From: Chara braunii
Taxonomy: Eukaryota; Plantae; Charophyceae
NCBI GenBank assembly: GCA_003427395.1
Contig: BFEA01000008.1
Span: 181,204 to 245,203, forward strand
DNA: 64,000 nt
Direction of reading: 5' to 3'
In this document: positions 15,156-56,997 of the stretch, one piece after another
Layout: each line of letters opens with the position of its first letter
Position numbering within the stretch: position 1 is the stretch's first letter
Program-made: the position numbers and the translations under genes
The notes under the pieces: model-generated
What the model saw: only the letters and a program-made list of their open reading frames with translations
Database searches by the model: none
Told to the model about the DNA's origin: nothing

Positions 15156-15700
15156 CCTGTATCGTGTCCGAAATGTCTTCATCCCCCTGACTTATGTACT
15201 TGCGTGTATCCAGTAAATCTAGTTCAAGTGCTTAGGCAATAATAACAGGTAACTGGTTCGTCTTTGGAGGAACTTTCTTCTGTAGTTTTGCTTTTAACAC
15301 TGGGCTGCGGAGATGATCAATGAACAAATTTTGAACAACGTTTTCCTCACGGCCTGATTTATCTAACGTTGTTTGAAACCGATCCACAAAGTCGGGTAGC
15401 AACTCTCCGGGTTCCTGGGACGGGTTCTTAACACAAACCAGGAAGCATCCTCACTTACTTCATCAAATATTGCTAGGAACGCTCTCTTGAAGGTATCCCA
15501 ATCGACCCACGTGTACCTTCTAAACCAATCATGAGCGGTGTTTCTGAGGAGCAAGGTGACGACGCAAGGAAGATCCTAAACGCCATATCCCTGAGCTTGT
15601 ACGGCTTCGAGCCATGCCTCGGGATGAGTATAATTAGGGTAAAACGGAAAACTGGCGGGGATACTTACCATTACCCGAGGAGCCGGTCCATTGGCCTCAT
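15156..15700 (-). pseudogene. E1 gag N-terminal (capsid-like) fragment
   Basis: LLRNTAHDWFRRYTWVDWDTFKRAFL matches E2 gag LLRNTSHDWFRKHTWVDWDTFKQAFL. Confidence 0.88.
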
Positions 15701-15827
15701 CCATGGGCATCTCTGGTCGAGTCTATGTGGACCTTTGTCGAGTGACAGGAGAACTCTGCCGATTAGATCGGTTGGCTAATCTTCCTCTCGCCATCTCGTC
15801 TTACTAATGTCAAAACTGACACGTGTC

Positions 15828-15840
15828 GGCTCCGATACCA
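15828..15840 (-). promoter_or_regulatory. Primer-binding site complementary to initiator tRNA-Met (E1)
   Basis: TGGTATCGGAGCC directly after the LTR end CATGAGGT; plant tRNAiMet PBS consensus is TGGTATCAGAGCC. Confidence 0.88.
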
Positions 15841-17830
15841 ACCTCATGTTCTGTGCTGCTTTCCGGTTTTAAGTGTTTTGGTTCGCGGAAAGGTCTGGGA
15901 AGAACAACAAAAATGGGTTCTGCCAAGGATTTTTGAAAAAGTTGAATGTGGGGACACAGACAGAACCGAGATCCCCCGTGTTGGTCCGACTTTAGTAAGC
16001 AGGGATCCGTCGCCGCTCGGGTTGAGGAAAGAAAAAGGCGCGCGCGGGGCTCAAAACGATGGAAAATTCAGTCCAAAAGGTATCCCTGTACTTCCCAGCG
16101 AGCCATTGCCCTACGTTTCGAATGAAAAGGGACGGGTACACACGTAGTATCCCGTTTTTGGATGAGGTCCCAGCGAGCCATTGCCCTACGTTTCGAATCC
16201 GATGTGGAGGGCCTCAATCGAGTGACTCTCTCCTTGTGTTCATCCTCGCCACGTGTGCGGTAACGGAAGCCCTTGGCTCGGTAACGCTCGGGGCGGCGAC
16301 AGTCGCTGCACAGCGTGTCAGGCCAATGGGGCGCCACTACTGCCCACAGGATGACGATCAACTCATTAAACGGCAATAACAATGAATAAGGCGGAAAGTG
16401 CGTATCGACAATGACGAGTTCGGCACCAACGAATCCGGAGCACCGGGTCTTAGGGGGAAAGTAATAACGTCCGCCGATCTTAGAGACGGCTTCTCGTACG
16501 TCCTATTCGCATACACGCGTCCTTTCCTTATTCTACGGGAAGGGGCGCGGCGGGGGCACGGGAAGTCGGCGCCCAGTCGGATCGGGGCAGTCGGTCCACA
16601 TGGAAAAAAGGCAAAGCGCAAGATCTTTCCTAATCATGCATCATTCATTCACTTCTACTCAATCCAATCCCACGTTTCATCAGATCTATCAATCAACATC
16701 CCTGTCATGCTTGCACAAGTTCTCAGGCGCAACCCACCTCATGCATATAACAAAGTGAGAGGAGAGAAATCATCATAATTCATTCATTATTGCAGAAACA
16801 TAATGGAAAGGAGGTGTGAGGAAGGAGAGACGTAGATCCGAAGAGAGAAGAAAGCAGACAATAATTACACAAGAAAGTCTGGTAATCTTGACAAGAAATT
16901 CCGGCTTAAATGCGTGTGAACGGAACTCACGCTCGAAGACTAGACTCGAGTCCAAAAGAGGCGCATCCGCCATAAAATTCCACTGTGGCCCCAGGCCATA
17001 CATTCACTCATCTTCCAATTACGATCCTCATACAAACACTGACAATCCCTATCATCACGTGCTACTCCCACCATAGCGATCATCACCCCGCCGACTCAGT
17101 ATCTGCACGGTCGTGCTCGGATCCCACAGTCCGTCGGACGATCCAGAGCACAGCCAGCAAGACTACAGGTAGCTCGTCAGGACTTTTTGACTCACACTTC
17201 ACACGTACCATCTAGCCACTGCTTCTCGGAAGTTGGCCGATACTTTGCGAGAGAGATTTTCAGACGCGCTTGAAGAATTTATTGTTGCGAAAAAGGAAAT
17301 AGATGATAGGAAGGATTAAGACCGAGGTGGGGAGGGGTAAGGGAAAGCTCGGGGATAATCACCCGAGGAAAGCCATGTCGATCCTTCGGAGCCCAGTCGT
17401 AGTCAATCTGAATCGCCATGTAACAGGAATATCCTTCTTACACGACGCGTCTCCTTGACTAGAGGGGAGGAGGAGGAAATCGACAGGGTATTCCGACGCA
17501 AGGTTTAGAGCGGGAAGAAGAAGAGCGACAAGGATAGCGCGAAACCGAACCAAGATTCAAACGATCAAGAAAGAGAAAAGGTGCACGAGGCAAGGGAGAG
17601 ATGGAAAACGGTTACAGAGAGAAAAGGAGCGTGAGCAAGAAGAAGAGAGTGTCGAAGGTAGCGAGGGAAGTGGGGAGAAGGGGGGGGGGGGGTATGCATG
17701 GCGCCGACGCGTATGCAAAAAGGGCACTAAAACAATTACAGCGCATTCAGAATCCTACGCTAATTCAAAATTAAAAAAAAAACATCATATCCGCACGTAG
17801 AGTGAACGTTGGAAAAATAAGTCCTGTGAC

Positions 17831-19629
17831 TGTGACGCCCAACCTCACACCTAGCGCGACTTCCTGATCCTAGTGGGATGGGGGCCTGGAAGTGTGAAAA
17901 AGGAGTGTGCCAAGGATTTCGGAAAGTGGGGGTGGAGTCCCAGGTCGGAACTGAGATCTCTTGTGGCAAGTCTCGGGGGCAGAAGTGCAAGAGGGTAGGT
18001 GCAGGCCGTATTTAGGGCCTTGTTCATAAAAAGGTAGGCCGCCTCTCGTGCTCTGCGCACAGAAGGAAGGCTGCAGATGTCGTGCAGCATAAGGCAGATA
18101 GCATGCGCAGTGTACCCGAACTAAAGTTCCCAGGGTATTCTTCCGTAATCACAGGAGCGACAGATCTAAACGCTCTTGCATTCCCAACGACATAGCTGCG
18201 GCCAACGAACTCAATCACGCTTTTCAAAGTATTTTTGTAAGCCTTAGGCCCGAAGGATGGGAATCACCATCTTCTTCGGTTTCGTCTTTGTGGTCGGTCG
18301 AGGACCTGATGGACGGGGTGCACGCTATGGGTATCGCCCTGTCTGGTCAGTCGTTGTCGTCGATCGTTGCAAACTTCGGAATTGGACGACGAAGGTCTCA
18401 GCCGAAGGTTGTGTGCTCATCGTTCAGACTTCGTCCGGGTTCGGCGAATGAATCCCGAGGCTCGGTATTTGCTATCCTAAAGGCACTCAAAGCAAGGGGT
18501 TCGGGGCCAGTAGGGGGCGATCGCACCCCACGGGATAACAGTGAGGTAGTGGAAAGGTAACACTACTCGGTAAGGTGGGCAGTGAGTTATTAGGACGACG
18601 ACCCCAGGTTCGGAAAAGACATGGCTCGTGTGAGACTCAGGGAACTGAGCCACGTAGGGAACGGCGTCCAATGGTCTCCCTATATCCCAATCACACACTC
18701 GTTCATCTCCTCGCTGATAGGTGAATGTTGGAGGATCGGATCAGGGTTGTGCGAGGAAGTACGTGTTCTTTCTTGTCCAGTACTTTCGAAATTCGGGGTC
18801 CTGCAGGCTTTCCCAATCAGTGATGTGAAACATTCTATCCGTTTGATGTAAGCGCCGTTATGGCCCGCGTGCAGATCTTGCAGACACTCGTGTAGGCGTC
18901 GTCTCTTCCGGTCAGGCTTACACGGGCGTGCACAGGATCTGCTTACGGCTACTATGTGAGGGGCTGGTCCCCGATTAGCAGGAGTGGGCGTGAGCGATGG
19001 TCGATCAGGAAGATACGGTCCGGGTTAGCTTAATTCAAATTTCGTCACTTTCTAGTGCCCAACATCATTGCCCTCCCTTTTCCTAAGGCGCATGTCTTAC
19101 CCGAGCACGACCCTTCAGCCCCTCGCAAGCAACCAATCATGGGATCACGCACTCACGACTTTCACTCACACATGTATGACTGGTCAGTTCTTCCCTACGT
19201 GCGAATCCGAAGGGTCTGCGGGAATGACTCGCAATGCTGGGTTTTTATGAACGCATCCATTAAGGCAACAAAATTCCCATCAGACTCATTCACGCTTTAC
19301 CGAGGGCGAAAAAACGACAAGTAGGCGCAAATCAAAGGGAGAGACGACATACATTCAACACACAAACCAGTGAGCATGCAAAAGGAATTACGGATAGTAG
19401 TCGCGCCGAAAAACAGAGGGGAAACGAGAACAAACATCCATCGAATAGTCAGACATGGAGGATCTGATGAAGTTGAGAATAGCAGATGACGCACACCCAA
19501 AATTCGAGACAATTCACAAGAAAAATCCGAAGTTGCCACAACAAAAATTGGCCAAAGCGAAAGTCCAAAATTTACACAAAAGGGTTGGAAGAATAAAAAA
19601 CAAAAGAATAAGACAACAACCCGATCCGT

Positions 19630-19702
<73 letters not shown>

Positions 19703-21757
19703 GCGGCCAGTCCATCGCCTCGCACCAACATCGAGTCATCACCCTGCTTAGCCCAATCATGCTCGTCAAGTTCGCCCGTGCGCCACGGTCCGTCGTGGCC
19801 TGCACGTCAACCCCACTTACTTGGCGCCAGCCCGTCGGATCGCCCGACCCAATCTACTCACCTGCCAGCTTACTCGTTAGTCGATCCTCACTGACCGCGC
19901 TAACCTTCCAATATTCAGAGAAAGCAACTAATCGCTCTTGCGGAATTTATAGCATGCATGCGTGAGCGATGAATTTGGGATTATGCCTAAGCAAAGGAAG
20001 AGAGGAAATGCCTACGTCTGCATGTCCAGGCCGCGGCGCGGGGAACGGAGCCACTCTCCACACATCGATCCGGCCATGCAAACATGAGAACCAATCAGAG
20101 CAAAGGAAGAGAGTGTGCATATGCAAACGAAGATGGGGCGGGAAAAGAGAAGAACGCGAAAGGCATTAAGAACAGGAAGATTATAGTTGTATTCACGTCC
20201 GCCAAAAATTACAGTTATGCGCAAGATTAAGGCACGGAAAAGTAAGAGCCCAGATCTTGTCGCGACAAGGCGTGCGTAAGCAAGAAGTGTCGCGCAGCAA
20301 AATTCAAAAGGTGCCTAAATTCCTAACCTAAGTCCTAATTGCAAAAGGAAATTCGGAAAGACAAAGAAAAGAAAAAAATTCCGAGAGCCCTTGGGGGCTC
20401 GACATCAGTTGAAACTTGAAAAACGACATTCCCGTGCGTTGAATACACCAAAATTCACAGTGCTGACAGCAGAACAAAAAAGAAGCTATCGTACAGCTAT
20501 TCCTCGTGCTCGCTAAGGTGCGGCTACTAAATCGTCGGCGCGGGATTTTCCCGACACCGTCCCGACAACTTTCAACAGAAAAACGAAGAAGAAGCGAGGG
20601 CATCCATGCAACTAGCCCAACCGGCCCATCTCCATGCATCCCTCCTGGCTAACTCGTCCCATTCCCCCACAGCAGCCTTCGCACTGAAAGTCGCGCGATT
20701 ACAGAAAATAGTTTTTTTTTTTTTTTTTTTTTGCTTGTGAGGCCCTTGTGCAGGACCTCTATCCTAATGGTGGTAAGAGAACCACCGGGATTGAGGCTTT
20801 GCCTAGCGGGCCACTCCATCTATTGGTGGGGAGCAACACCTGCTGGAAACCGGGTCCAGCGTCCCTTAAATACATCTTTGTAAAACAGTACATCAATGAG
20901 AGTGACGCCAATGTGCTGGAAACCAGGTCCCGCGTCCCATATCCAATCTACTCTTCCATACCTAACCTGCAGTAGGGTCGGGTATTGGGGGGGGGACCAC
21001 CGGGGGGCACCAATGGAATCTGCCTCCATCCCCTAGCCTATGCCATCCTCCTACTATCCTCATGGCAACTATTGTGTCTTGCACTCTGCAATAACATGTG
21101 TTTGAGAAAAGTTGAATCAACAGAAAGCAGGCTGAAATGAGCTGCAGTGAAATCAGCTGAAATTTTTTTTGAGAAATACTGAAGAAACACCGAGGAATAC
21201 TGAAAATTTCTGAGAATTACTAAAATGATACTGCAAAAAAACTTCTCTGAGAATAACAATTCTTGAAACCAGGTCCAATCCACCAGCGTATTCAGACTGG
21301 GCAAGACTGTTGAAGACTATTGAGAAGACTATTGAGAAAAATATGAAATAAAGAGAAAGAGAGGAAAGTGAGGAAAGAAAAAGATGAAAGAGATGAAAGA
21401 GATGAGAGAAACAGGGGGGGGAAAGAAAGAAAGAACGAAGGCACAAATGAGCAGACAGTGGCCAAAGAAATGTCAGTAAGAGGGCTAAGAACAAAACTGG
21501 TACATGCTAGATCCCTTGGCTTATGCAGGCGGCAGGGTTTCTGTTAAGGAGAGTGGGTGGGGGGGGAAGGGGTCTGCGAAGTCCTGAGCTGCCCTTAATG
21601 ATTCACCAAGGTCTACTTTGATCCAATCATGGAAGATCAGCCGGTAGTCCCTTTCCATCTATATCCCGGGTTCCTCCTGTGGTTCCTTCTCAGACTGATT
21701 GCTCCCAGACCATTTTACCTCGGCCACCCATCCCTCCTTTTCCCTTAGTTCGTCACA
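17831..21757 (-). mobile_element. Solo LTR of a related subfamily, containing a probable ~1-kb non-LTR 3'-end insertion (~20711-21700)
   Basis: TGTGACGCCCAACCTCAC..CGTCACA with TSD TGAC (17827-17830 / 21758-21761). Similar to 59621-62194. The poly-T at ~20712 is followed by sequence resembling 53000-53050. Confidence 0.82.
19633..19700 (+). repeat. (CT)n microsatellite
   Basis: Direct inspection. Confidence 0.95.
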
Positions 21758-22129
21758 TGACTATTCAGATTCGTACGAAAATTCTCAGAGTTTTCCAAGA
21801 CGAAGTCAAGAACATTCCCGCACAAGAAAGGACATGTCAGGTCCCGCTCATTCCGGAATTCCTAACCGTCGACCCAAATTCCTAGCGCACTCGCTCATGC
21901 ACGCGTATTTCCCATATATTTCCCGAATTGCAAAAAAAAGATGGAATTCCAAAAAGCGCCCCAAAATGACGAAGGTCTAGAGAGAGACGGGCCTTTCCGC
22001 TCAATGCGCATTGATCCATGGAAACACAACAAGGGGCGTCTTCGGCCTGTTTGCACAGGATAACAAAAATGTGAAGAAAAGAAGGGGGGGGGAGGGAGAT
22101 GGTGCAGGTCCGGAAGCTGGCACGTCACA

Positions 22130-22632
22130 TAGGTAACCTTGTCCGCCAAGAGACGATCTTGAGTGCTGGAACAGTCCGTCAAGTTTATGAGGCATATGCA
22201 TACATGGCCCTGGTCCAGTTTATGAACCATTGGCCAAACCCCATTTTAGACATGGTGGTGGAGATGAAAGCCCAACCCACCTTGTCAAAGACCTTTTCCA
22301 TATCCAGGAGCAGCACAACCATGTTCCTCTCTTCCGTACTTATTACTTCCAGGGCCTGGACTGTCGTCAAAATATTCTAAAAAAACGAACAGCCTTTAAC
22401 AAAGGCACCTTGCTCGCACCCAACCAAGTAAGTCAGTTGCTCAGCTAAGCGGATGGCTAGAGCCTTTGCCATAATTTTGTAAGTTCCATTAAGAACCGAA
22501 ATCGGGCGGTCGTTTCGTACCTCCCTCTTATCCCCCTTCTTATAGAGGAGGGAGATCACCCCTTTGATAAACCCACCAGTGAGGAGGCCTGTCTCTAGGG
22601 ACTTATTATATATCTGGCAGAGAAAAGGAGCG
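22130..22632 (-). pseudogene. L1/Tx1-type LINE reverse transcriptase fragment (downstream part)
   Basis: GVISLLYKKGD..RPISVLNGTYKIMAKALAIRL..EQGAFVKG and LLDMEKVFDKVGWAFI..MGFG. Confidence 0.9.
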
Positions 22633-25420
22633 TGTGACGCGCTAACCTCACGCCCTGTGCTGTCTTTCATTCGGAGTGTTAGGCGCGCCGAAAGAGGCCC
22701 AGAAAAACAGCAAAATGGGGTGTGCCAAGGATTTTTGAAAATTGAGTGTGGGGATACAGATGGAACTGAAATCGATTGCTTTCGCGCGTCGCGGAATGCG
22801 CGCGCGGGCACGGCGTGACAAGAGACAAATCCAAATTCAATTCAAAAAGTATTTTTGGACTTCCCACCGAGCCACAGCCCGTCGTTTAGAACAGAAAGGC
22901 TTTGGCACGCTCCGCGTGTCTCATTTTCGTATCAAATCTCGTCGTCATTCGATGGTCAATTCTGAGTCCGACGTGGATGGTCTCAGTCGCGTGGTTCTTT
23001 CTTTATGCTCGTCTTCACTCCGCACACGGTAGTGGAAACCCCTAGATTCGTAGCGTTCAAAACGCTGGCATTCGGTGCATAGAGTGCGTGGCCAGTGGGG
23101 TTCTACTGCCGTCCACGGGATGACGATCAACTCGTTGAATGGCAACAATATCGAGTAAGGTGGGAAGTGCGTGTCGATAATGACAAACCCAGCCTCTACG
23201 AACCCTGAACGACGATTTGCTGGAGGGAAGTAATATCATCCGTCGATCTGTGCGACAGCTTCTCGCACGTCCCACTCGCATATACGTGTCCTTTCCTCGT
23301 TGTAAGGAAAAGGTCGTGTTGGGGCGGGAGATACAGGAGGTTGGTGCCCAATCGGAGGGTACTGGTTGGTCCACATATCAATCAATTGGAAAGACCTTGC
23401 GACGTCATCAAGAAAAGAAAACACTTGCGCAACTCATAGACAATTCCCTTCAACCCGAGAGGGAGAGAGAGAAAGAGAAAGAAGACACGTCAGCAGCTTG
23501 ATCATGCATATAACTAAGGGACCGATCCGCGGCTCAGGTTTAATGAGCCAGCGCGCCGTTGATCCCCGAGCGCCTTGTTTCTCGAGGCCGCCTCGTGGTT
23601 GGGCTGCGGATGTCGGACAGCATAAGGCAGATGGCATGCGCAGTGCACTCAAAGCTACAGATCTAAACACTCTTGCATTCTCGGACAAAATCCCGACGAC
23701 AATCGTCTAATCAATGTCAAAGAGACGCGCATTCCCATACATCCATTCACTGTGGAAGATGCGAAAATGAGCCATGCACAGAAAAAGATGGATTGCTTGC
23801 ACAGTACACACGCATCCACCGTTCACAAGACAAGAAAACGGGGTCCTTGCGCGGGAGGATTACCCAGGAAACTAATGGAAGAGTTTCGGAAGAAGTTCTT
23901 TCACGCAAGGAAAGCATACAGATTCATGCTCATCCAGAAGAGGGAAAAAAAAAGAGAGAGAAAGAGAGAGAGAAGCATCGAGACACATTATCATTCAAAG
24001 ATAGAGGAGAAAGGGGAAGGTGAGGGGGGGGGGGGAAGAGAGTCTAGATAGGAGATGACGCAACCCAAAAGAAGGAAGTTCAGAGAGAAAGATCCGCAAC
24101 AACAAAGGCGCATTCGCCGTTAATTCCAATATGGCCCCGGGCCAATAACTCACTCAACTTCAATCATCGATCCTCATACCCGCACCGACGATCCCGATCG
24201 TCGCGTGCTAACTCCCACCACTGCGATCGTCACCCCGCTTTCGTAGACTCGACACAGTTCGCCCAGATCCCACAGTCCGTCGTGGCGATCCAGCGCGCAA
24301 CCGGCCAGCCTATCGTCAGCCCGACAGGACTTTCCGATTAGCANNNNNNNNNNNNNNNNNNNNNNNNNNNNNNNNNNNNNNNNNNNNNNNNNNNNNNNNN
24401 NNNNNNNNNNNNNNNNNNNNNNNNNNNNNNNNNNNNNNNNNNNNNNNNNNNNNNNNNNNNNNNNNNNNNNNNNNNNNNNNNNNNNNNNNNNNNNNNNNNN
24501 NNNNNNNNNNNNNNNNNNNNNNNNNNNNNNNNNNNNNNNNNNNNNNNNNNNNNNNNNNNNNNNNNNNNNNNNNNNNNNNNNNNNNNNNNNNNNNNNNNNN
24601 NNNNNNNNNNNNNNNNNNNNNNNNNNNNNNNNNNNNNNNNNNNNNNNNNNNNNNNNNNNNNNNNNNNNNNNNNNNNNNNNNNNNNNNNNNNNNNNNNNGA
24701 TTGGCGAGCGGGAGTTATCGATGGATTGACCGGGCGTCGTGTGCCAGCCTCAGAGGGTGAGGGAAAAAAAAGGCGCGAGAAGTGGCGCAAGACGGGTCCA
24801 AGATTCAGATGATCAAGAAAGGAAAAGGGGCGCGCAAAGAGCAAGGCGGGAGAGAGAGAGAGAGAAAGAAAACAGTTACAGGGCGAGAGAAAGGGGAGGG
24901 AGAAAGGGAAAGGAGCGTGGGAGGGAGCGATGCGGGGGACAGAGAGGAGACAGCTTTGCACGCGCGGCGCCGTCAACAGAAAAAGAGAAAAAGGCACCGA
25001 AACAGTTACAGCCTAATTCAAAACTGAAATCAACATATCCGCGCGCGAAAGAGCGACGCGGGAAAAGAAAATCCTACGCCTATTCGTATTCGCACAAAAT
25101 TCCGAGAGTTTTCCCCGATGCGACCAAGAACATTCACACACACGAAAAGGACACGTCGATGTTCCGCTTATCCCGGAATTCCCAACTGCCGAGCCCAATT
25201 CCCAGTGCGTTCGCTAAGGTGTACGTAATTTCCTATGTATTTCCCGAATTGCAGAAAGGAAAAGTCGAACCCGGGATTCGAAAAAAACTTCCGAAAGATG
25301 GGGGCCAAAAACGCGGTACCCAAAATCAAGAAAACGAAACGGCGTTTTTATGGGGTTGGTATGATACAAGCACAAAAGGGGTACGAAAGATAGCACGGGT
25401 TCGGGAAGTGGTTCGTCACA
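22633..25420 (-). repeat. E2 3' LTR (~2.8 kb, contains N-gap)
   Basis: Highly similar to 33969-36716, plus 11 extra terminal nt (22633-22643). Confidence 0.95.
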
Positions 25421-25432
25421 TATGTGACGCGC
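25414..25432. other. Palindromic att-junction-like site CGTCACATATGTGACG plus internal copy of the terminal 10-mer, at the position of the PPT
   Basis: Perfect 16-bp palindrome at 25414-25429. 25423-25432 (TGTGACGCGC) is identical to 22633-22642. Confidence 0.9.
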
Positions 25433-25779
25433 AGGGGGTTCCGAAATTATGCGATCTCCTAATTATGTCATGGCGGAACAGAGTGATGCATGAGGAACCA
25501 AGCGTATCAACAAGCGATCCAGCCAGAGTCTATGTTGACGCCAACTGCAATTGCAGTTGTCTGTTGCTGGAATCCTCGATGGTGGTCCAGGTGACGCCAT
25601 CATCGTCCGCTGGTTCTGCGTGTGCTCTGCACCCCAGCTGGTTGTTGTCCGTCGAATCAGAGCGTGAGTTGACGTCATCGTCGATGGCGTGATCTTCGTG
25701 AAGCTTACTGATTCGTGCCGTTTTCCCCTGCTAATTGGATGAAGAGAGGGGGGAGGGGGGGTAGTGATGTGATCGGGAT

Positions 25780-26409
25780 CTACCTCCTAGTTGGAATGGG
25801 CCAATAGAGGCGGTACATGGAGGGGATTTCTCGGGGCCGACGGGGAGGAAGTGGGGGTAGGAAGCGATTCATTCCTTCTATCGTCACCAGAAGCTCCTCA
25901 TATCCGATGATCCGGTGGAAGTGGGGGAAGTGATCGCCGCTGCGAGGGAGGGAAGCAAGGTAGTCGCGATAGAAAGAGGAGAGGGTGCGGAAAAGCGCCG
26001 TTTGGAAGAACTCATAGTGGCGGCAGGCGGGGATTGTCCCCGTGGCAACGCAGTAAACCTCTACCACGTTGCATCGCTCCCATGCAGCGCTGAACAGCAA
26101 GAGATGCCAGCAGAACGTGGGGGCAGCGGATTGAAGGGAGGCGTGGGGGTGGACGGTGGCGAGTAGGCGGGTAGAATAGAAGTCGCGGAAGAGATGAAGA
26201 AGGAAGGGATGGGAAGGGAAGGTGACGGGAGTACGGATCTGCTCGAGGGTGAGGAAATCAAGGGGTTGGCGGGACAGCGTCCAAGGACGAAGGCCTATCG
26301 CCCGCATCGGTACGTGGGCGAACTGGGGGACGGGTTGGGCTGGAGGAGGAGGGGGATCGACTCCGTCTCCGTCGAGCGGTACTTGAGGTGGCGGCTGCAA
26401 GGTCGCCAT
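25780..26409 (-). CDS. E2 accessory ORF 3 (~209 aa from MATLQPPP), unknown function
   Basis: Open frame in the sense of the element between integrase and the 3' LTR, with a globular-looking aromatic-rich core. Confidence 0.5.
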   Translation of the reverse strand: MATLQPPPQVPLDGDGVDPPPPPAQPVPQFAHVPMRAIGLRPWTLSRQPLDFLTLEQIRTPVTFPSHPFLLHLFRDFYSTRLLATVHPHASLQSAAPTFCWHLLLFSAAWERCNVVEVYCVATGTIPACRHYEFFQTALFRTLSSFYRDYLASLPRSGDHFPHFHRIIGYEELLVTIEGMNRFLPPLPPRRPREIPSMYRLYWPIPTRR

Positions 26410-27286
26410 CTTCGGGCTTCGGTAGCTCTGGATCCCTAGTCGGATCGTTACCGATGAGCAGGCTAGCTTTGCTGGCGAACTCCAGCTGGCGCTTCCCGGT
26501 GGCAATTTCTTCGCGCTTTCGCGCCGCTTCCGGATCTTCCGCCTCCGTTTCCGTACGCGTTGCCTCCTCCGGCACGGCTTCCCACTCAGATCCTGTTTCT
26601 TCTTCCTCCTCTTCTCCTTCACTCAGCTCGCCCTCGCTATGTTCACTATAGCTCCCCTCCTCCAATGTTTCCTCGTCTTCATCCTCTTCGTCGTCGTCGT
26701 CGATCACCACTTCCTCTTCCCTCAGATAGAAGGCGTGAGGGATGATATCGTACAGCTTCAGATACTCCTGCCGCGATGGTAGCGTATCCTCGTCCCTAGG
26801 TTCCTCCAAGCACGCAGTCCACTGAAGATACGGATCCAATGATCGCTCGAAAATGTATGGAGCAGGACTGTCGTCACTATGAAAATAGATGTCGGGCGAG
26901 AGATCGTCCGCCAATTGCACGATTGGTGTGATGAGCTCTTGCGCAATCAGCTGGCGGCGCCCCGGCTGTACCGATCCAAAGAGAAAGCCAAGAAGATTGC
27001 CCTCCGCGTTAGTCCTCCAAGCTTGGATGATTAGCAGTTCCGGATTTTCGATCCACGCAGGATGGCCGCTGGTCTGTGTCCACGTCACCTGTATTCTGGC
27101 CAAGCAAAAAAACAGCTCCTCAAAAGTTTCGCGCCACAGCCGCCAATGTCCAGGATTGATAAGAGGGACCGAAAGAGGCTCGAATGAGAAGGAAAGAGAA
27201 GGATGAAGATCGGATTGCCAGAAGGTGGGGAAGAGAGAGGGGAGACCAAAGATAGAGAGAGGAGCGAGAAGATCGACGTGGTTCAT
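26258..27286 (-). CDS. E2 accessory ORF 2 (342 aa; globular N-half, acidic tract, RS-rich tail), unknown function
   Basis: Long intact ORF in sense orientation downstream of integrase. Confidence 0.6.
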   Translation of the reverse strand: MNHVDLLAPLSIFGLPSLFPTFWQSDLHPSLSFSFEPLSVPLINPGHWRLWRETFEELFFCLARIQVTWTQTSGHPAWIENPELLIIQAWRTNAEGNLLGFLFGSVQPGRRQLIAQELITPIVQLADDLSPDIYFHSDDSPAPYIFERSLDPYLQWTACLEEPRDEDTLPSRQEYLKLYDIIPHAFYLREEEVVIDDDDEEDEDEETLEEGSYSEHSEGELSEGEEEEEETGSEWEAVPEEATRTETEAEDPEAARKREEIATGKRQLEFASKASLLIGNDPTRDPELPKPEDGDLAAATSSTARRRRSRSPSSSSPTRPPVRPRTDAGDRPSSLDAVPPTP

Positions 27287-27411
27287 TGGGGATGTGGGAA
27301 GGGGATGAGGGTTGGGATCGCAACTAGCCGCTCACGCGGTGATCGGCGAATATCGCCAAGATCCAATGCAAAGATCGGGATGAGGTTATACCCTTGTCGG
27401 GCGAGGACGTG

Positions 27412-27750
27412 CTACCACATGTTGAACACTTGCTCCGTCCACTCGCGCAGCGAGGTCAAGATCGTGGTATGCCACTGCGGATTGACCGAGCTGATGTCAC
27501 CGCTGAACGCCGCAACCGTGGTAACGTGGCTCGTTCTGGGGCCCGCTCGCCGATGAACTGCGGTTACCTCCGCGAATACCACTGCGTGAGGACTTCCTTC
27601 GATTCGAAACGCAGCGGCGGCACAGATACCTTCGTCGCAGAAGAATCGCATTAATCGGCGACGATCTGCATTGAGTCGAGGGTGACAAACTTGCCGAATC
27701 TCTGAGATGTGGCCATGTGGCTGCAACAGCTGTGCGTCAAGAAGAGGCAC
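27412..27750 (-). CDS. E2 possible accessory ORF 1 (112 aa)
   Basis: Sense ORF after the integrase C-terminus; start uncertain. Confidence 0.35.
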   Translation of the reverse strand: MPLLDAQLLQPHGHISEIRQVCHPRLNADRRRLMRFFCDEGICAAAAFRIEGSPHAVVFAEVTAVHRRAGPRTSHVTTVAAFSGDISSVNPQWHTTILTSLREWTEQVFNMW

Positions 27751-27949
27751 TAGCCTCAGGAGCGATGCGCACCGTGATAAAACTCATGGCGAGGTGGGAG
27801 AGGAGGACGAAGGACAAGAGGGAGAAAGAGGAGAGAGAGTTAGATCGTCGTCGTTCTCTTCGCTTTCCGAGGAAGAAGAGGGAGGAAGATCAGGAGGAGG
27901 AAGAAGACGGAGGTAGGAGGTATGTCGGACAATGGGGACAGAGTTATGG

Positions 27950-29574
27950 CTGGCACTAGCCTCAGGCGCGATGCGCACCGTGTTGGCGCCGTTGAGTCCG
28001 AGCTCGACAACGTGAAAACAGCCAGAAAACTTGGGAGCGAGTTTCCGGTCGCGTGCACATTTACGTACCTGCACTAGGTCCCCTAATTTATATTGATGCT
28101 GGGGCCCAGCATTTCCATTCCGATCCTCGTAGCTACGGACCTATCTACCGTGGGCCAGTTCGGTCATCCTTTGCCTTTTTCGGGCTAGCTTCGGGACGAC
28201 CCGTTCCATTAATTCAGTGTACCTTTTGGCCTTGGCTTTGAAAGTTGTACGCGTGTCTCTACCCCCTGCTTCGGCAATTTCCGAGTTACCTCGGTAGTCG
28301 ACACAGGGGAGGCTATTAGTTCGAAGTTGAAAAGGGGTAAACCCCGTGGACTCGTGAGGGGTGGCCCGGTGGATCCCAACAATTTGATATACGATCTCAG
28401 GCCAAGGACGTGCGTCATGTGCCGGTAAGTTCCTGCGAAGGGCGGTTTTGATCATACGGTTGGCATTTTCGGCCAACCCGTTTGACTAGGACACGTGGGG
28501 TGTCGTATGTCGGAGCGTGATGCCCCTTCGCGCAAGCAGTTCTTCTACCTCACCTTTGAATTCGGACCGATTGGCGGTCACAATTTCTTCCGTATCTAGA
28601 TGGGTATAGAGGAACCGTTCGATGTACGTGGCTATTTCTGCGGCTTTTTGGGTCTTACAGGGATAGACTTCGATGTACTTGGAAAAATGATCTATTAATA
28701 CTAGCAGGATAGAATATTCACAGCGGTTTGGGCCAGGTGGCACGTCGATATCTGTCGCGTCCATACTAACTCGCTGGAAAGGACGCTCTACTTCCGTTGG
28801 TACGATCGTGTTTGGTCCCCGTATAGGGGCGCGATCAGCGGCACAGACCAGACAGTTAGCGACAATGTATTTGACATCATCTCGTATATTGGACCAGAAC
28901 CATCGGTTCTGATCTACAGTTGCCTCCGCGACACGTATTGCGAAATGAGCGGCCTGTTCCTCGTGAGCAAATCGAATCCAATCATATCTCTGGAATGGAT
29001 GGGGAATCGTCAACCACGAGCCCGAACCGTCAGTTTTACGTTTTTCCAAATGGCCGTTGACCCATCGATAGTCCCGAGATCTCTCCGTCGCCCTACGTCT
29101 GTCGTGTTTGGTAAGGTGACCCAATGATAATCCCCCTAATTTTGCCAATAAAATTTTATCCGTCCAAACCTCCGCTCGTCGGTATTTTTCGTCGTATTCA
29201 GGGTCGTCCGTACGGGCGGTCTCGAATCGAACCTCCGTGGGGAGTTTGTTCGTTCTACACAGGGGGCACCTCCACTCCTTGTTATTCGTCCGATATCGAA
29301 CGCAGGCCCCGTGCGCACGATTGACACACGTGGCACATTCTACCCAGTCAACAAACCTGGTTTCGAAAGGACGGCAGTCGACCCCATGGACCCGTGCGAT
29401 GCACGTGCAAAAATAACAGAATTTGTCGGGGAGGGTGGCAAAGAAAGCTGAGGACGTGAGAGGGGCAGCATTAGTAGGAGATGAAGGGGTAGCGGAGGCA
29501 AGTGGGGTAATCATGATGACAGAGAAGGAAGGGATGCAGAGAGGGTAGAATAGACCAATGAGTCCTCGTGTCAC
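27950..29574 (-). pseudogene. PHD finger-integrase (HHCC, DDE core, GPY/F-like tail), broken by a stop at 28486 and further lesions
   Basis: PHD CYFCTC..WVECATCVNRAHGAC..WRCPLC. HHCC H-EEQAA-H..CLVC. Core PFQRVSMD, IDHFSKY, TANRSEF (second Asp lost), NGLAENANR, TPHESTGFTPFQL. Tail KLAPKFSGCFHV. Confidence 0.9.
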
Positions 29575-32282
29575 TCACTGCTTCGATAAGATCTCCACTT
29601 GGCCGTACCAAGGTCCGATCTCTTGTTCGGGTTCGTTCCACGGAATCACCTCCTCACTCTTCGGAACCTTCTCAGGCCGGTGCAGTCGTGTCAGTCCGTC
29701 CGCATTCCCGTGTCTCTCGTGCTTTCGATGACGGATGTCAAAGTCCATGCTCTGCAGCACCGTTGCCCATTGCCCGATCATGCGAGAGTTATCCTTCGAT
29801 TTCTTCAGAGCCAACAAGGGCTCATGGTCAGTTACCAAGGTGAACTTTCGCCCGTACAGGTAAGCGCGGAAGTAGCTGATACCCCAGAGAGCCGCGTCGC
29901 ATTCCCCCGTCGGAGCGTCGTAGTTGCGCTTGCAAGCTGGCACCGATTTGGAGGCGTACTCCACCACACTCTCGAGTCCGCTTGGTCCCACCTGGGCAAG
30001 GATCGCCGAAATTGCCTCTGGCTGCCAGTCAGTGATGAGAACAAAAGGCTTTTCGGGATCCGGTCTTATAAGGACCGGGGCCGAAATGAGAGCGGTCTTG
30101 AGTTTGGAAAACGCTTAATCGCACTCCGGCGTCCAGATCAACGGCTGATCTTTGCGCAGCAGATTCGTGAGGGGTCCCGCAATCGCCACGAAGCCCTTGA
30201 TAAATCTTCGGTAGTACAAGGCCAGGCCCAGAAAGGCGCGAACTTGCATGATAGTTGTAGGCACCGGCGCGTCCCTGACAGCTGCCACCTTCTGTGACTC
30301 CGGCTGGAGTCCCTTGTCTGTCACCACGTGCCCTAGGAAGGAAATGGTGGTGAGGAAAAATTGACACTTCTCAAGCGCCACCTTGAAGCCCGCATCTCGT
30401 AACGCGTGCAGTGCCCATTCGATGTGTTGCACGTGTCCCTCGTAGGAACTTGAATACACCAAGATATCATCCATGTACACAATCACGCAGTAGTTGATAA
30501 TGCTCTGTGCCAACCGAGTCTTTCTCACGAAATTCTGAAAAGCCATGTTTATGGCTCGCTGAAAGGTCGCGGGGGCGTTGTAGATACCCATCGGACATCG
30601 AATCCACTGCCATGTGCCCTCGAAAAGTACAAACGCTGTTTTCAGACGATCTTCTTCTCGAACAAGAAGATGATGGAACCCATGGCGAACATCAAATTTG
30701 TTGAAAAATCGAGCACTCCCAATCGCATCCAACAACTCATCAATCCGGGGGAGGGGGTACACATCTTTGATCATGATATCATTCAACTTTCGATAATCAA
30801 TGCAAATGCGAATCCCTCCAGTCTTTTTAGGCACGATTACTACGGGAAAAGATTAGGGACCTATGGCGGGTTCGATCCATCCATTAACTTCGAACTCCTT
30901 AATCCGCTGAAAAGCGGCCGGTCTTTGAGCTGGCGAGTATCGGTAAGGAACGCAGCTAATGGGTGGATGGTCTCCCGTGAGAATGGCATGCTCGATCACA
31001 TTAGTTAAGCCAATGTCATTATCATGTATGCTCAATACTTCCGCGTACCCGTTTAACACGTAGATTAATGATTTTCGAAGTTCTGCGGGGACGTGACCTG
31101 GCAGGGTGATTGTTGATTCCTCGAAAATCTCAAGGGGCACATCGACCCAATCATCCGGCCGTTCCTACCGATCATGGACACTAGAGAAAACGGAACTACT
31201 GGTGCGAACAGAGAAAACTGTAGCTATCATCTGGGACTCTGCGGGGCTGATCACCTTTGTTTCTTTGGCTTCAGCATCAGTCTCTGAATCAACCGAGGTC
31301 GGTTCCACAGTTAGCCCCGCTAGATCCGTCATTTCCTGCATCAGATCAGGTACGTCACTTACTGGTGCTTCCGCCTCTTGTTTAATCAAAATGATGGTGG
31401 CTCCTGGCGTTAGTAACGTTCTGGGCGGGAAAACAGAAACATCCAAATATTGTTCCATTTGCTGATAACGCGTACGTAAGGACAGAGCTCCTTCGTACAA
31501 GGTGCGAGGGGGTTCCGAATCATCTGTCAGGTCAGATACTTGTAATATAGGTTCCCCAAGCAGGGCCGAAGGATTAACTTGCGTTATCGGAGGCGCAAAC
31601 ACGCTGTCTCCTGAATCCACGTGGAAACTTTGAACAGGGTCGGGGCACACTTGGAATTCCTCGGGAATTTCGTGTTCGAAAAGTTCAACCAGGTGCTTCC
31701 ATTCATCTTCGCTAGGCAGCTCTTCTTCGTATTCCTGTTCCCGGATTCCATCACTGATGTGCGAGGGAGAGCGCTCCTCGGAATCAATGCATTGAATCAT
31801 CCCAATTTGGGCCAAGTTAGGGACCCGTTGAATCGTTCGGGTGGAAACTCGCAAGGGAACAGTTTGAGGCTTTCCCCCAGTTTGCGTGAGCACCGATTGT
31901 TTCGAATCGAAATGCAGGCGTGCGCCCACCGCCATCGCCCAAGGTAATCCGAACAACAAAGAATAAGAACGTACATCTATTACGAGCACGTTAACAAGAA
32001 CGTGTACTCGTCCGACTTTTACAGCCACGTTCTCGATAATGCCTACGATGTGCATTGCTTCCTCGTCGGCAGAGACATAATTGTCTTTGCCAGATTGAGG
32101 AAGAATGGATCCAAGTCGTCCCGTCTTTTTTACTGTATCCAATGATATGGCCACGACAGAAGATCATGTGTCAATAAGGGCATTAAACAGCTTGCCCCAA
32201 ACTTCACAGTCACATTCCGCACTTTTTCACAATACCGGTCGAGCTCGTACGAAGTGATTTTTTTCTGCTAAAGAGATCGCTG
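29575..32282 (-). pseudogene. E2 pol: protease, RT, RNase H with several premature stops
   Basis: Protease ALIDT*SS (DTG mutated to a stop). RT CIDYRKLN, NAPATFQ, YMDD. RNase H FTLVTDHEPL..HGNADGLTR. Confidence 0.93.
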
Positions 32283-33833
32283 CTATACGTGCCGCTTCGG
32301 GTTTAGGTTCTCTCGTGTCCGGCTCGGGGGGTGCAACTCCTCGCTTCCTTCCTTCTTTTTCAACATCCGTTGTATGCGCTGATAGGTAAAGCGCTTTTGA
32401 TTTTTCTGGCAATGTTGTAAAAGTTTACCGTTCGCGGCTTCAGATATGGTGAGCAGATGTCCTCCTGGGATAGGAATGCGAATATCTAGTTGCTTGAGCG
32501 ATTTCAATACATCAATATCTCCTGTCCGAAATTGCAGTCCAGGATTGGATTCGCGATCGACCCATTCGAGATCATTTGGGGCCGATCGGATCGCTCCGAT
32601 CATGCCTGCAAGATGAAGATACTTGAGGGGATCGACCACATCAGCAGCGTCAGAGGAAGAAGCTCCAGAGGTCGACGCTGTTGCCATCGAAGGGGAAGGC
32701 TGCTTTGGGGCATATGCCACGAGTTCTCCTCCTTGATCCGTATCCATCAGGGCGGCCACTCGTCCTTGATTAAGGGCGACAGGGGCCGCAGCAGGGGGAG
32801 GCTGATTACATTTCGACTGCGGACAGTCCCGGGCGAAATGCCTGGGCTGTTTGCAGTTAAAGCACTCGATCTTTCCTGCTGGATTAGCTAGATGAGGGAA
32901 CTGAGGTGCGAACCCTGGAGCAGGCGGGGCAGGTAAGAGTGGAAATGATGCGGGGCCAGGCCGAGCAGGAGCCGGGTTAGGCTTAATTATCCTGCTCATT
33001 ATTTGTTCCATTCGTTCCATATGAGCGGCTTGCATTTGGATCAAGTTGCTCATCCGATCGGACTGCTTAGTAGTGGCCGTATGGATCATTTGGGCAAGGT
33101 GTGAGTTGGTTATGGCCGGCGAGGAGGGTTCGGGTGAGATTCCGCTTTTAACGACTGCGATCGATTGATTCGCCGGAGGAGAGGAAGAAGACGCAGGCGG
33201 GGTATCGGAAACGATCCCACCGGGGAGGTCATGGTCGGGGCGGGGATAAAACCGTTCGACCGCCTGCAGCCATGATCGCCTTTTAGCCGTTACATCCCGT
33301 ATAGTATCTGTGATGTCTTCGTCTCCCTGGCTGATATACTTTTTTGTATCAATCAGGTCCAGTTCCAATGCTTTAGTGATGATAGCCCATAACTGGTGAG
33401 TTTTCAGCGGAACCTTTTTCTGCAGTTTGCCTTTCAATGTAGGACTTCGTAGATGGTCGATGAACAAATCTCGAGCGGATTTCTCGTCTCGCCCGGATTT
33501 GTCCAGCGTGGTTTGAAATCGATCGACCAAATCGGGTAACCATTCCCCTGGTCCTTGTGGCCGATTTTTGAGTACGTACCAGACGGCATCTTCACTAACC
33601 GTATCAAATTGAGCCAAGAAAGCTTGCTTGAAAGTATCCCAGTCTACCCACGTATGTTTTCTAAACCAGTCATGCGACGTATTGCGGAGTAGCAATGTCA
33701 AAACGCGGGGAAAATCGATTGCGCTGTAGTTTTGAGCTTCGACAACTTCTAGCCAAGCCTCGGGGTGGGTATGGTTAGGGAAGAAGGGGAAGGGTGCGGG
33801 GATACTAACGATCACCCTAGTACCATCCACCAT
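32283..33833 (-). CDS. E2 Gag (capsid-like region plus CCHC zinc knuckle)
   Basis: 516-aa ORF starting ~120 nt after the PBS; WDTFKQAFLAQF and CFNCKQPRHFARDC. Confidence 0.92.
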   Translation of the reverse strand: MVDGTRVIVSIPAPFPFFPNHTHPEAWLEVVEAQNYSAIDFPRVLTLLLRNTSHDWFRKHTWVDWDTFKQAFLAQFDTVSEDAVWYVLKNRPQGPGEWLPDLVDRFQTTLDKSGRDEKSARDLFIDHLRSPTLKGKLQKKVPLKTHQLWAIITKALELDLIDTKKYISQGDEDITDTIRDVTAKRRSWLQAVERFYPRPDHDLPGGIVSDTPPASSSSPPANQSIAVVKSGISPEPSSPAITNSHLAQMIHTATTKQSDRMSNLIQMQAAHMERMEQIMSRIIKPNPAPARPGPASFPLLPAPPAPGFAPQFPHLANPAGKIECFNCKQPRHFARDCPQSKCNQPPPAAAPVALNQGRVAALMDTDQGGELVAYAPKQPSPSMATASTSGASSSDAADVVDPLKYLHLAGMIGAIRSAPNDLEWVDRESNPGLQFRTGDIDVLKSLKQLDIRIPIPGGHLLTISEAANGKLLQHCQKNQKRFTYQRIQRMLKKKEGSEELHPPSRTRENLNPKRHV

Positions 33834-33956
33834 TGGTGCCGCGGGTGCAGCCGCACCAGACTAAGACCGGGTTACTGGACGATCCCGACGAACTAGTTGC
33901 GGGCCTCTCCTACCTCTCGCCGGTTCGACTTACTATCATTAGAACCGACACGTGTC

Positions 33957-33969
33957 GGCTCCGATACCA
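33957..33969 (-). promoter_or_regulatory. E2 PBS (initiator tRNA-Met), overlapping 14-bp palindrome CCGACACGTGTCGG at 33945-33958
   Basis: TGGTATCGGAGCC immediately after GTGAGGT. Confidence 0.9.
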
Positions 33970-36716
33970 ACCTCACGCCCTGTGCTGTCTTTCGTTCGGA
34001 GTGTTAGGCGTCCGGAAAGAGGCCCATAAAAACAGCAAAATGGGGTGTGCCAAGGATTTTTGGAAATTGAGTGTGGGGACACAGATGAAACTGAAATCCC
34101 CCGTGTTGGTCCAATGAAGCAAGTCGATTGCTTTCGCGCGTCGCGGAATGCGAGCGCGGGCACGGAGCGACAAGAGACAAATCCAAATTCAATCCAAAAA
34201 GTATTGTTGGACTTCCCACCGAGCCACAACTCGTCGTTTAGAACAGAAAGGCTTTGGCACGCTTCGCGTGTCTCGTTTTCGTATCAAATCTCGTCGTCGT
34301 TCGATGGTCAGTTTCGAGTCCGACGTGGATGGTCTCAGCCGCGTGACTCTTTCTTTATGCTCGTCTTCACTCCGCACACGGTAGTGGAAACCCCTGGATT
34401 CGTAGCGTTCAAAACGCTGGCATTCGGTGCATAGAGTGAGTGGCCAGTGGGGTTCTACTGCCGTCCACGGGATGACGATCAACTCGTTGAATGGCAACAA
34501 TATCGAGTAAGGTGGGAAGTGTGTGTCGAGAATGATAAACCCAGCCTCTACGAACCCTGAACAACGATTTGCCAGAGGGAAGTGGTATCGTCCGCCGATC
34601 TGTGCGACAACTTCTCGCACATCCCACTTGCATATACGTGTCCTTTCCTCGTTGTACGGAAAAGGCCGTGTTGGGGCGGGAGATACGGGAGGCTGGTGCC
34701 CAATCGAAGGGTACTGGTTGGTCCACATATCAATCAATTGGAAAGACCTTGCGACGTCATCAAGAAAAGAAAACACTCGCGCAACTCATAGACAAGTCCC
34801 TTCAACCCGAGAGGGAGAGAGAGAGAGAGAAAGAAGACATGTCAGCAGCTTGATCATGCATATAACTAAGGGACCGATCCGCGGCTCAGGTTTAATGAGC
34901 CAGCGCGCCGTTGATCCCCGGGCGCCTTGTTTCTCGAGGCCGCCTCGTGGTTGGGCTGCGGATGTCGGACAACATAAGGCAGATGGCATGCGCAGTGCAC
35001 TCAAAGCTACAAATCTAAACACTCTTGCATTCTCGAACAAAATCCCACAATCATCTAATCAATGTCAAAGAGACGCGCATTCCCATACATCCATTCGTTG
35101 TGGAAGATGCGAAAATGAGCCATGCACTGAAAAAGATGGATTGATTGCACAGTACACACGCATCCACCGTTCACAAGACAAGAAGACGGGGTCCTTGCGC
35201 GGGAGGATTACCCAGGAAACTAATGGAAGAGTTCCGAAAGAAGTTCTTTCACGCAAGGAAAGCATACAGATTCATGCTCGTCCAGAAGAGGGAAAAAAAA
35301 GAGAGAGAGAGAAAGAGAGAGAGAAGAATCGAGACACATTATCATTCAAAGATAGAGGAGAAAGGGGAAGGTGAAGGGGGGGGGGGAAGAGAGTCTAGAT
35401 AGGAGATGCCGCAACCCAAAAGAAGGAAGTTCAGAGAGAAAGATCCACAAAAACAAAGGCGCATTCGCCGTTAATTCTAATATGGCCCCGGGCCAATAAC
35501 TCACTCAACTCCAATCATCGATCCTCATACCCGCACCGACGATCCCGGCCGCCGCGTGCTTACTCCCTTCACTGCGATCGTCACACCGCTTTCGTAGAAT
35601 CGACACAGTTCGCCCAGATCCCACAGTCCGTCGTGGCGATCCAGCGCGCAACCGGCCAGCCTATCGTCAGCCCGACAGGACTTTCCGATTAGCANNNNNN
35701 NNNNNNNNNNNNNNNNNNNNNNNNNNNNNNNNNNNNNNNNNNNNNNNNNNNNNNNNNNNNNNNNNNNNNNNNNNNNNNNNNNNNNNNNNNNNNNNNNNNN
35801 NNNNNNNNNNNNNNNNNNNNNNNNNNNNNNNNNNNNNNNNNNNNNNNNNNNNNNNNNNNNNNNNNNNNNNNNNNNNNNNNNNNNNNNNNNNNNNNNNNNN
35901 NNNNNNNNNNNNNNNNNNNNNNNNNNNNNNNNNNNNNNNNNNNNNNNNNNNNNNNNNNNNNNNNNNNNNNNNNNNNNNNNNNNNNNNNNNNNNNGATTGG
36001 CGAGCGGGAGTTATCGATGGATTGACCGGGCGTCGTGTGCCAGCCTCAGAGGGTGAGGGAAAAAAAAGGCGCGAGAAGTGGCGCAAGACAGGTCCAAGAT
36101 TCAGATGATCAAGAAAGGAAAAGGGGCGCGCAGAGAGCAAGGCGGGAGAGAGAGAGAGAGAAAGAAAACAGTTACAGGGCGAGAGAAAGGGGAGAGAGAA
36201 GGGGAAAGGAGCGTGGGAGGGAGCGATGCGGGGGACAGAGAGGAGACAGCTTTGCACGCGCGGTGCCGTCAACAGAAAGAGAGAAAAAGGCACCGAAACA
36301 GTTACAGCCTAATTCAAAATTGAAATCACCATATCCGCGCGCGAAAGAGCGACGCGGGAAAAGAAAATCCTATGCCTATTCGTATTCGCACAAAATTCCG
36401 AGAGTTTTCCCTGACGCGACCAAGAACATTCACACACACGAAAAGGACACGTCGATGTTCCGCTTACCCCGGAATTCCCAACTGCCGAGGCCAATTCCCA
36501 GTGCGTTCGCTAAGGCGGACGTAATTTCCTATGTATTTCCCGAATTGCAGAAAGGAAAAGCAGAACCCGGGATTCGAAAAAAGCTTCCGAAAGATGGGGG
36601 CCAAAAACGCGGTACCCAAAATCAAGAAAACGAAACAGGGTTTTTATGGGGTTGGTATGATACAAGCACAAAAGGGGAACGAAAGATAGCATGGGTTCGG
36701 GAAGTGGTTCGTCACA
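33970..36716 (-). repeat. E2 5' LTR (lacks terminal CA; contains N-gap)
   Basis: Matches 22645-25420 and joins the PBS directly. Confidence 0.95.
34189..34728 (-). CDS. LTR-encoded ~179-aa protein with CxxC motif (MWT..PPYSILLPFNELIVIPW..CTEC..LRPSTSDS)
   Basis: Homologous frames in other LTR copies (ORFs 16068, 18477, 22945/23236, 56169, 58479, 59816), with synonymous divergence. Confidence 0.72.
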   Translation of the reverse strand: MWTNQYPSIGHQPPVSPAPTRPFPYNEERTRICKWDVREVVAQIGGRYHFPLANRCSGFVEAGFIILDTHFPPYSILLPFNELIVIPWTAVEPHWPLTLCTECQRFERYESRGFHYRVRSEDEHKERVTRLRPSTSDSKLTIERRRDLIRKRDTRSVPKPFCSKRRVVARWEVQQYFLD

Positions 36717-36720
36717 AGCG

Positions 36721-41461: not shown

Positions 41462-41600
41462 GAGAAGGGGAGTGAAGTCGTGTGAATGAGTTTGTGGGAT
41501 CGAGAAAGGTGAGGAGGCGGGAGGCTTGCGATATACTAGTAGAGTAATGAGTGCGCAGCGGCGAATGAGGAGGAAGTGATATGGTTACGAACGATGAACG

Positions 41601-48737: not shown

Positions 48738-48781
<44 letters not shown>

Positions 48782-56985: not shown

Positions 56986-56997
56986 GAGCCTCACATA

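Follow-up and report, generated by a model that had tools for sequence, protein, structure and literature searches.

A decayed Ty3/gypsy element and its neighbours

The window analysed here, a 64,000-nucleotide stretch of Chara braunii DNA, contains on its minus strand a decayed 14.1 kb copy of a Ty3/gypsy LTR retrotransposon, which we term E1 (22633–36716), flanked by a 4 bp target-site duplication (TSD), AGCG (22629–22632 and 36717–36720). The 5' LTR (33970–36716, with a gap of Ns at 35695–35994) starts with TGTGAC and lacks a terminal CA; the 3' LTR (22633–25420, with a gap of Ns at 24344–24698) carries an 11-nt terminal extension (22643–22633) that is absent from the 5' LTR. The LTR-LTR distance is 0.042 substitutions per site (K2P, 2418 sites). 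A primer-binding site of the Met-tRNA type (33957–33969; TGGTATC...), presumably for initiator Met tRNA, abuts the shortened 5' LTR, and an equivalent junction is present at 15840 in a second element. The internal region comprises a gag ORF with a zinc knuckle (32283–33860; first ATG at 33833; Pfam zf-CCHC, E=2e-5, and a weak Retrotrans_gag match); a protease-RT-RNase H region (29578–32340) in which the protease is broken, RT has YMDD at 30477–30466, RNase H (RH) has TDWQP at 30033–30019, and in-frame stops are present; an integrase (IN) N-terminal extension with an H2C2 zinc-binding domain (28843–29240; Pfam Integrase_H2C2, and a block in the AlphaFold model); and an integrase core with an SH3-like C-terminal part (27784–28842; stop at 27786–27784; two in-frame stops in the E1 copy). 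Between RNase H and the integrase extension lie a stop codon, a spacer, and a C4HC3 finger. Downstream of the integrase is conserved coding sequence (26258–27774, in parts at 27774–27403 and 27331–26258) that has an acidic C-terminal part and matches Chara gene models at 37–86% in tblastn; the part at 27331–26258 has no Pfam match. This downstream accessory coding region (27774–26258) is common to Chara subfamilies, and short pieces resembling its acidic tail also occur within the E1 LTRs (24180–24337 and 35531–35688).

The order gag-PR-RT-RH-IN, together with LTRs, primer-binding site, and TSD, is that of a Ty3/gypsy element; two features of such elements, a polypurine tract before the 3' LTR and identical LTR ends, are absent from E1. 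The closest named proteins are Chara braunii gene models throughout, at identities up to 91%. The E1 copy is dead: the pol frame has six in-frame stops in the part examined and one more at the protease site, gag and pol are separated by a frame break, and the second catalytic position has no acidic residue. The stop at 30117–30115 is private to E1, another letter being present in >99% of contig depth at that position.

Other elements are present in the window. The minus-strand segments 1–3419 and 15154–22129 are probably the two parts of a single related gypsy element, separated by an insertion of ~11.5 kb; the 1–3419 part is 65–72% identical to E1, and the window edge falls before the finger. 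A plus-strand element at 53910–59271 is internally deleted, with LTRs ~88% identical, ~55 bp between them, no primer-binding site, and no flanking TSD. A plus-strand open frame of 2481 codons (41598–49043), of low complexity, is likely a giant host exon and has a weak nucleotidyltransferase-type match (MTPAP-like central, E=5e-4, aa 2128–2291). The original prediction held that every LTR insertion in the window lies in another transposable element and took this as a sign of targeting. The statement is supported only for the solo LTR at 17831–21757 (TSD TGAC), which lies within the 5' LTR of the split element; in the flanks of the other insertions, 0 of 47 ORFs of at least 95 aa match a transposable-element domain. 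A single nested insertion is expected by chance in a repeat-rich genome. We conclude that the window data cannot show targeting.

The C4HC3 finger and its conservation

A stop-free minus-strand ORF (29574–28486) encodes, in one frame, a C4HC3 finger followed by H2C2 and by the beginning of the integrase core. The C4HC3 pattern that had been noticed ahead of the HHCC domain is located exactly at 29418–29257 and, in a search of all six frames, occurs at a single place in the window. Chance is ruled out as its source: the pattern was absent from all 100 block-shuffled windows and from all 100,000 versions of the ORF with shuffled residues. The finger has a Trp before C7, three extra Cys/His residues in loop 1, and a net charge of +3 (8 basic vs. 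5 acidic residues).

Profile scores leave the finger at the edge of the PHD class. The PHD profile scan that had been proposed as a check went against the assignment: with the whole ORF, Pfam returns PHD at E=0.0033 and 17.9 bits, short of the curated threshold of 24 bits, alongside H2C2 (aa 196–247) and rve (aa 263–360). Scored alone, the finger matches zf-4CXXC_R1 (19.1 bits) better than PHD (14.6 bits), and it scores −1.7 bits on an HMM that was built from 18 canonical retroelement PHDs. The fingers of two relatives score similarly poorly in Pfam (no match for P0137; PHD_2 at 9.7 bits for P0184). A single-sequence search of the PDB placed NSE1 on top and also returned a weak match to listerin; the NSE1 finger is a RING-like C4HC3, and the listerin finger is RING-type. 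Since the NSE1 and zf-4CXXC_R1 scores are similar to those for PHD, assignment to the PHD class rests on motif, not on score.

The motif evidence is as follows. The ligand spacing is the C4HC3 spacing of the PHD finger (PF00628), and the Trp two residues before C7, a trait of PHD rather than RING fingers, is invariant in 5 of 5 aligned rows. RING-variant C4HC3 fingers have a C-x-C-x7-H spacing and a Trp four residues after C6; the window finger has C-x2-C-x4-H and no Trp at that position, and no RING family is among its four Pfam matches at E≤1. In a profile search with the finger family, the best weak matches were mostly PHDs (PHF7, E=0.033). The top three matches of the finger in the Atlas were PHDs at 0.79–0.80, which we treat as a lead only; a separate Atlas search returned H2C2 clusters only, at 0.75–0.77. 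Structure prediction is informative for the integrase part: a single-sequence AlphaFold model has a pLDDT of 35, and an alignment-based model has pLDDT <50 for aa 1–102, where the alignment is poor, and 74–96 over aa 111–250. In both models, most of the finger is below 50. A fold search with the latter, in which only the integrase part is confidently modelled, gave a foamy-virus integrase as best match. We read the finger as PHD-derived and probably zinc-binding, with a putative PHD fold.

Within loop 1 (29403–29374, minus strand), the extra Cys, His, and Cys have the form C-x5-H-x3-C and resemble a partial repeat of the C4-H-C6 segment. These residues are absent from the JGI relatives, and a third metal site is conceivable.

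The absence of a chromodomain after the integrase was borne out. Neither of two C-terminal integrase segments has a Chromo match at E≤1, the distal segment giving only weak matches to MLVIN_C and SH3_Tf2-1, and we accordingly dismissed a chromovirus identity for E1. The end of P0137, which may be cut at a contig edge, likewise has no chromodomain.

The finger is not private to E1; it is present in Chara subfamilies and in a distant metagenomic relative. We placed contigs of at least 80% identity from two DNA runs of one sample, which may itself be the source of the window, on a 2.3 kb region, leaving contig depth out of copy counting and of the ranking of parts. The runs gave 11,327 and 12,768 aligned contigs, all 30 of 30 bins were covered, and, among the contigs listed, at least five bridge the finger and the integrase extension and at least one bridges the finger and the RNase H tail. 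An HMMER search with finger, linker, and H2C2 over 1.84 billion representatives returned 60 matches at E≤0.001, six of which extend into the finger: four Chara gene models (P0002, P0126, P0127, and P0136) and two JGI proteins (P0137 and P0152). The four Chara models cover only the second half of the finger, since their predicted splicing bypasses this stretch; C1–C4 are retained in no Chara gene model, which counts against the reading that we favour below. P0002, P0126, and P0127 share 51, 45, and 43% identity with the window ORF and keep W-x-C-x2-[C]-x6-T-E, one ligand being replaced in P0002 and one in P0126. All eight ligands are kept in P0137, P0152, and P0184, a cluster mate. Conservation of the full set, together with the flanking W and T-E-x-R, thus reaches a metagenomic relative in which integrase identity is down to 35%.

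An IQ-TREE integrase tree of retrieved proteins (62 rows chosen from 111 that passed a coverage filter) unites the Chara rows with P0137 in a single clade (support 100/99); its deeper branches, among them any link of the Chara family to P0188 or P0176, are not resolved. Further searches gave no additional cases: 0 of 67 candidates passed in a search for homologs of aa 40–200 among proteins of similar length, 0 of 20 pattern matches were confirmed in a scan of viral contigs for the locus, and scans of metagenome contigs for the locus gave 0 of 400 (alignment A2) and 0 of 74 (P0137). Contig coverage and relatives together exclude a private insertion of the finger in E1. We conclude that a PHD-like finger before a chromodomain-less integrase is conserved across a high-copy Chara braunii gypsy family.

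A stop after RNase H and possible roles of the finger

The RT-RNase H region ends at a TGA (29575–29577) that lies within a splice-donor-like GTGAGT and is likely conserved in the family. The spacer that follows (29419–29574) is pyrimidine-rich and contains a first ATG at 29514, an S/P/T/A-rich leader, a TACTAAT that resembles a branch point, and an AG, ending at 29448, that resembles a splice acceptor. RT-RNase H and integrase share a frame, and the intervening stop, 52 codons before C1, looks conserved. The fusion described in the original prediction therefore stands for finger and integrase and probably not for finger and RT-RNase H, the in-frame stop at 29577–29575 lying between them.

Automatic gene models, from which, rather than from DNA alignments, we read conservation of the stop, give a consistent picture. 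Among 15 models with an RNase H tail (13 of them named Chara), none reads into the spacer or the finger. Four of the 15 end 3–11 residues past the RNase H tail motif, P0029 at the window's own residue; nine pass to other exons one residue ahead of the stop seen in the window; and two leave slightly later. P0025, outside the 15-model pattern, ends there too. The TGA position is absent among the variant rows listed (40 of 330). P0152 and P0184 have a Met 54 residues before C1 and start Met-Thr-Pro-Ser, with an S/P-rich leader like that of the window. Length differences of 11 and 13 bases, neither a multiple of three, occur within or across the spacer in two individual contigs and provide weak evidence. 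A 'MAMGD' peptide in P0007 and P0022 may point to an overlapping start in a different subfamily.

The stop that follows RNase H thus seems to be shared by the family, and we consider it probable that PHD and integrase form a separate ORF. According to this proposal, the stop would end RT-RNase H, and the integrase would be translated as its own ORF, by way of the internal ATG at 29514, a spliced RNA, or reinitiation. Alternatively, Pol could be a single protein, with a spliced RNA or readthrough removing the stop and joining RNase H to PHD-integrase. Ogre/Tat elements remove an intron with a stop from their gag-pol by splicing, and E1 contains a phase-compatible pair, a donor-like GTGAGG at 29657 and the acceptor AG ending at 29448, with TACTAAT upstream. 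However, the donor at 29657 is not kept in the protein of relatives (Asn in P0007, P0016, and P0021), an intron from 29657 to 29448 would delete the conserved RNase H tail, and the acceptor at 29448 is used by no gene model. In-frame splicing from the strong donor that overlaps the stop (29578) was rejected, its phase not matching that of the acceptor. We consider a single Pol protein improbable. If the stop is indeed conserved and unspliced, the family would represent a gypsy element that expresses its integrase separately.

We assign a probability of about one half to the reading that, in this high-copy family, a divergent PHD-type finger caps a separately translated integrase and is likely a chromatin tether acting by its basic surface. 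According to this reading, the finger would descend from a canonical, KDM5-PHD1-like finger of algal RH-PHD-IN gypsy elements and would tether the integrase to chromatin by a basic surface rather than by the classical H3K4 pocket. H3K4me3 readers have a cage Trp two residues before the His, and readers of the me0 type have an acidic residue after C3 and a PxGxW motif. The window finger has Arg two residues before the His, Ala after C3, and no PxG before W-x-C7. A basic patch, C-[VI]-[RQ]-[YR]-[RK], is kept after the C6 position in 5 of 5 aligned rows. Judged by these residues, a non-canonical tether is more likely than a classical H3K4 reader. Of the original prediction of a chromatin-reading module, the PHD-like finger holds family-wide; the reading function does not follow from it, since the pocket residues are missing, the finger is basic, and it falls below the Pfam cut-off and below zero on the canonical HMM.

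It is rather unlikely, in our estimate, that the finger reads the H3 tail, probably with unmethylated H3K4, and steers insertion off active promoters. Consistent with such a reader, an Asp lies three residues before C1, and the canonical PHD of P0157 is closest to those of KDM5 PHD1, ORC1B, BAZ2, CHD4, AIRE, and PHF21A, several of which are described as preferring H3K4me0 (PMC6979384); in addition, Gypsy-7a_cRei of Chlamydomonas reinhardtii has an intergenic insertion bias of 2.6 times chance (PMC9940879). The absence of the pocket motifs, the net basic charge, and the score of −1.7 bits on the canonical retroelement PHD HMM argue against it, as does the fact that nesting in another element is shown for one insertion only. 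In a published screen, moreover, only 31 of 123 PHD constructs bound H3 (PMC6979384).

Less likely again is a module that binds protein or RNA and has no part in the choice of target, which might package the integrase through Gag, RT, or genomic RNA or serve a RING-variant-like interaction. A separate integrase ORF would require a packaging route, and the basic surface and the weak NSE1 and listerin matches are compatible with such a module; the invariant Trp two residues before C7 and the predominance of PHDs among profile matches argue against it, and P0188, a single polyprotein for which a packaging aid would be unneeded, has a PHD at the same place. That the finger is a functionless, decaying relic of an ancestral PHD is very unlikely: the low profile scores and the ligand changes in P0002 and P0126 would fit decay, but those two are old copies, and eight ligands plus the flanking W and T-E-x-R are kept across 35% integrase identity. 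The reading of the finger as a tether matters for insertion-site choice, which in gypsy elements is guided by chromatin-type domains, putatively also by PHDs. With an RH-PHD-IN layout at high copy in a charophyte, insertion preference is measurable from the existing genome.

LTR ends and relation to known PHD-bearing elements

Directly before its 3' LTR, E1 has an internal copy of its own last 10 bp plus TA (25421–25432, minus strand), which creates the palindrome GTCACA-TA-TGTGAC; the internally deleted element has an equivalent layout at 56986–56998. No purine run immediately precedes the E1 3' LTR, where a polypurine tract is expected. The 5' LTR of E1 ends with GAGGT, followed by the primer-binding site, and the 3' LTR continues for 11 nt to a CA (a shortening of the 5' LTR by 10–11 bp). 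The second 5' LTR (15840) is also without the terminal extension, and the solo LTRs at 17831–21757 and 59621–62194 have it and are flanked by 4-bp TSDs. The last 10 nt are repeated, with TA, before the 3' LTR in both of the two elements in which this is visible. The internal and terminal 10 nt are identical at 10 of 10 positions in E1 (internal copy, 25432–25423) and at 9 of 10 in the deleted element (56986–56995 vs. 59262–59271), and the first three bases of the 10-nt end differ between the elements and match within each. Each element also has, shortly before the internal copy, a partial complement of its U5 end.

The within-element match of the 10-nt ends fits an end copied from the internal site, for example from a circle cut at the palindrome. 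In such a model, a linear cDNA beginning 10 bp plus TA ahead of U3 would circularise, and integrase would cut the GTCACA-TA-TGTGAC junction; cleavage of such palindromes by retroviral integrase has been reported (PMC1905944). The model would account for the confinement of the terminal 10 bp to the 3' LTR and for their match, element by element, with the internal copy. The mechanism is proposed from two cases. We regard as doubtful the broader proposal of a gypsy lineage that has a stand-alone PHD-capped integrase and integrates from a circular intermediate. The internal copy nevertheless offers a testable explanation for the shortened left LTR of Gypsy-7a_cRei, which the available part of that element's description notes without explanation; Gypsy-7a_cRei is active in a laboratory alga.

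PHD fingers in retroelements are well known (PMC6673714), and a PHD module in a gypsy element is not new: both Gypsy-7a_cRei and retrieved proteins have one before the integrase. Our own HMM, which misses the divergent finger, was applied to 156 retrieved proteins with an integrase, a set that is biased and contains near-duplicates; three of them have a canonical PHD ahead of the integrase and 29 have one behind it. Gypsy elements fused to Chromo in Chara, and PHD fusions in cnidarians, have been described (bioRxiv 10.1101/2021.11.30.470311), as have extra domains between RT and integrase (bioRxiv 10.64898/2026.05.21.726589). Our literature searches returned no description of the Chara family, of a separate gypsy integrase ORF, or of the LTR junction; Repbase, REXdb, GyDB, the Chara genome paper, and Craig's thesis may list the family.

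Among retrieved proteins, P0188 is an intact, uninterrupted 2020-aa gag-pol with RH-PHD-IN order. As in E1, its PHD lies directly before the H2C2-integrase, and the same holds for P0176 and P0157; unlike that of E1, the PHDs of all three are canonical (33–39 bits, PF00628). In an RT-RH tree of retrieved proteins (41 rows, 12 wanted rows having fallen short of coverage), P0188 is sister to the Chara family with SH-aLRT 86, and, among the RNase H motifs listed, TDWQP occurs only in the window and P0188. TDW instead of the usual TDAS is found in the window, P0188, and five green-algal-type PHD elements listed, and not in P0085 or P0091; it is a possible clade marker. The green-algal gypsy elements (Haematococcus, Chlamydomonas eustigma, and Chrzof1) resemble E1 in combining a PHD with a gypsy integrase and, in those listed, an RNase H TDW, but differ in that their PHD is canonical and C-terminal to the integrase and in that they form a separate clade in both trees. 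REM1, as described in papers that cite it, is of the same kind, with its PHD C-terminal to the integrase. Some PHD gypsy elements also encode a DNA methyltransferase: the gypsy Pol proteins P0047 and P0101 both have a C-terminal PHD and a cytosine DNA methyltransferase, which lies between RH and IN in P0047 and is N-terminal in P0101.

Chromoviruses (MAGGY and others) and CopiaMBD (PMC6673714) likewise carry a chromatin-type domain on integrase or Pol, for which insertion guidance has been proposed or shown; E1, by comparison, has no chromodomain, its domain is N-terminal, and its chromatin binding is putative. The closest described counterpart is Gypsy-7a_cRei (Craig et al., PMC9940879), a 15.4 kb element with a PHD in Gag-Pol, a figure legend that gives the order RH, PHD, INT, a left LTR without its final 8 bp, and intergenic insertion at 2.6 times chance. 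Like it, E1 is a long gypsy element (14.1 kb) with a PHD between RH and IN, a second ORF in the internal region, and a left LTR shorter than the right (by 8 bp there and by 10–11 bp in E1). Unlike the PHD of Gypsy-7a_cRei, which is part of a Gag-Pol polyprotein, the finger of E1 is divergent and probably stands at the front of an integrase ORF of its own. The likeness is one of described layout, and the available part of the Gypsy-7a_cRei description mentions no internal copy of the missing LTR end. We conclude that the finger-capped integrase of the Chara family is a variant of a layout with precedent in Chlamydomonas.
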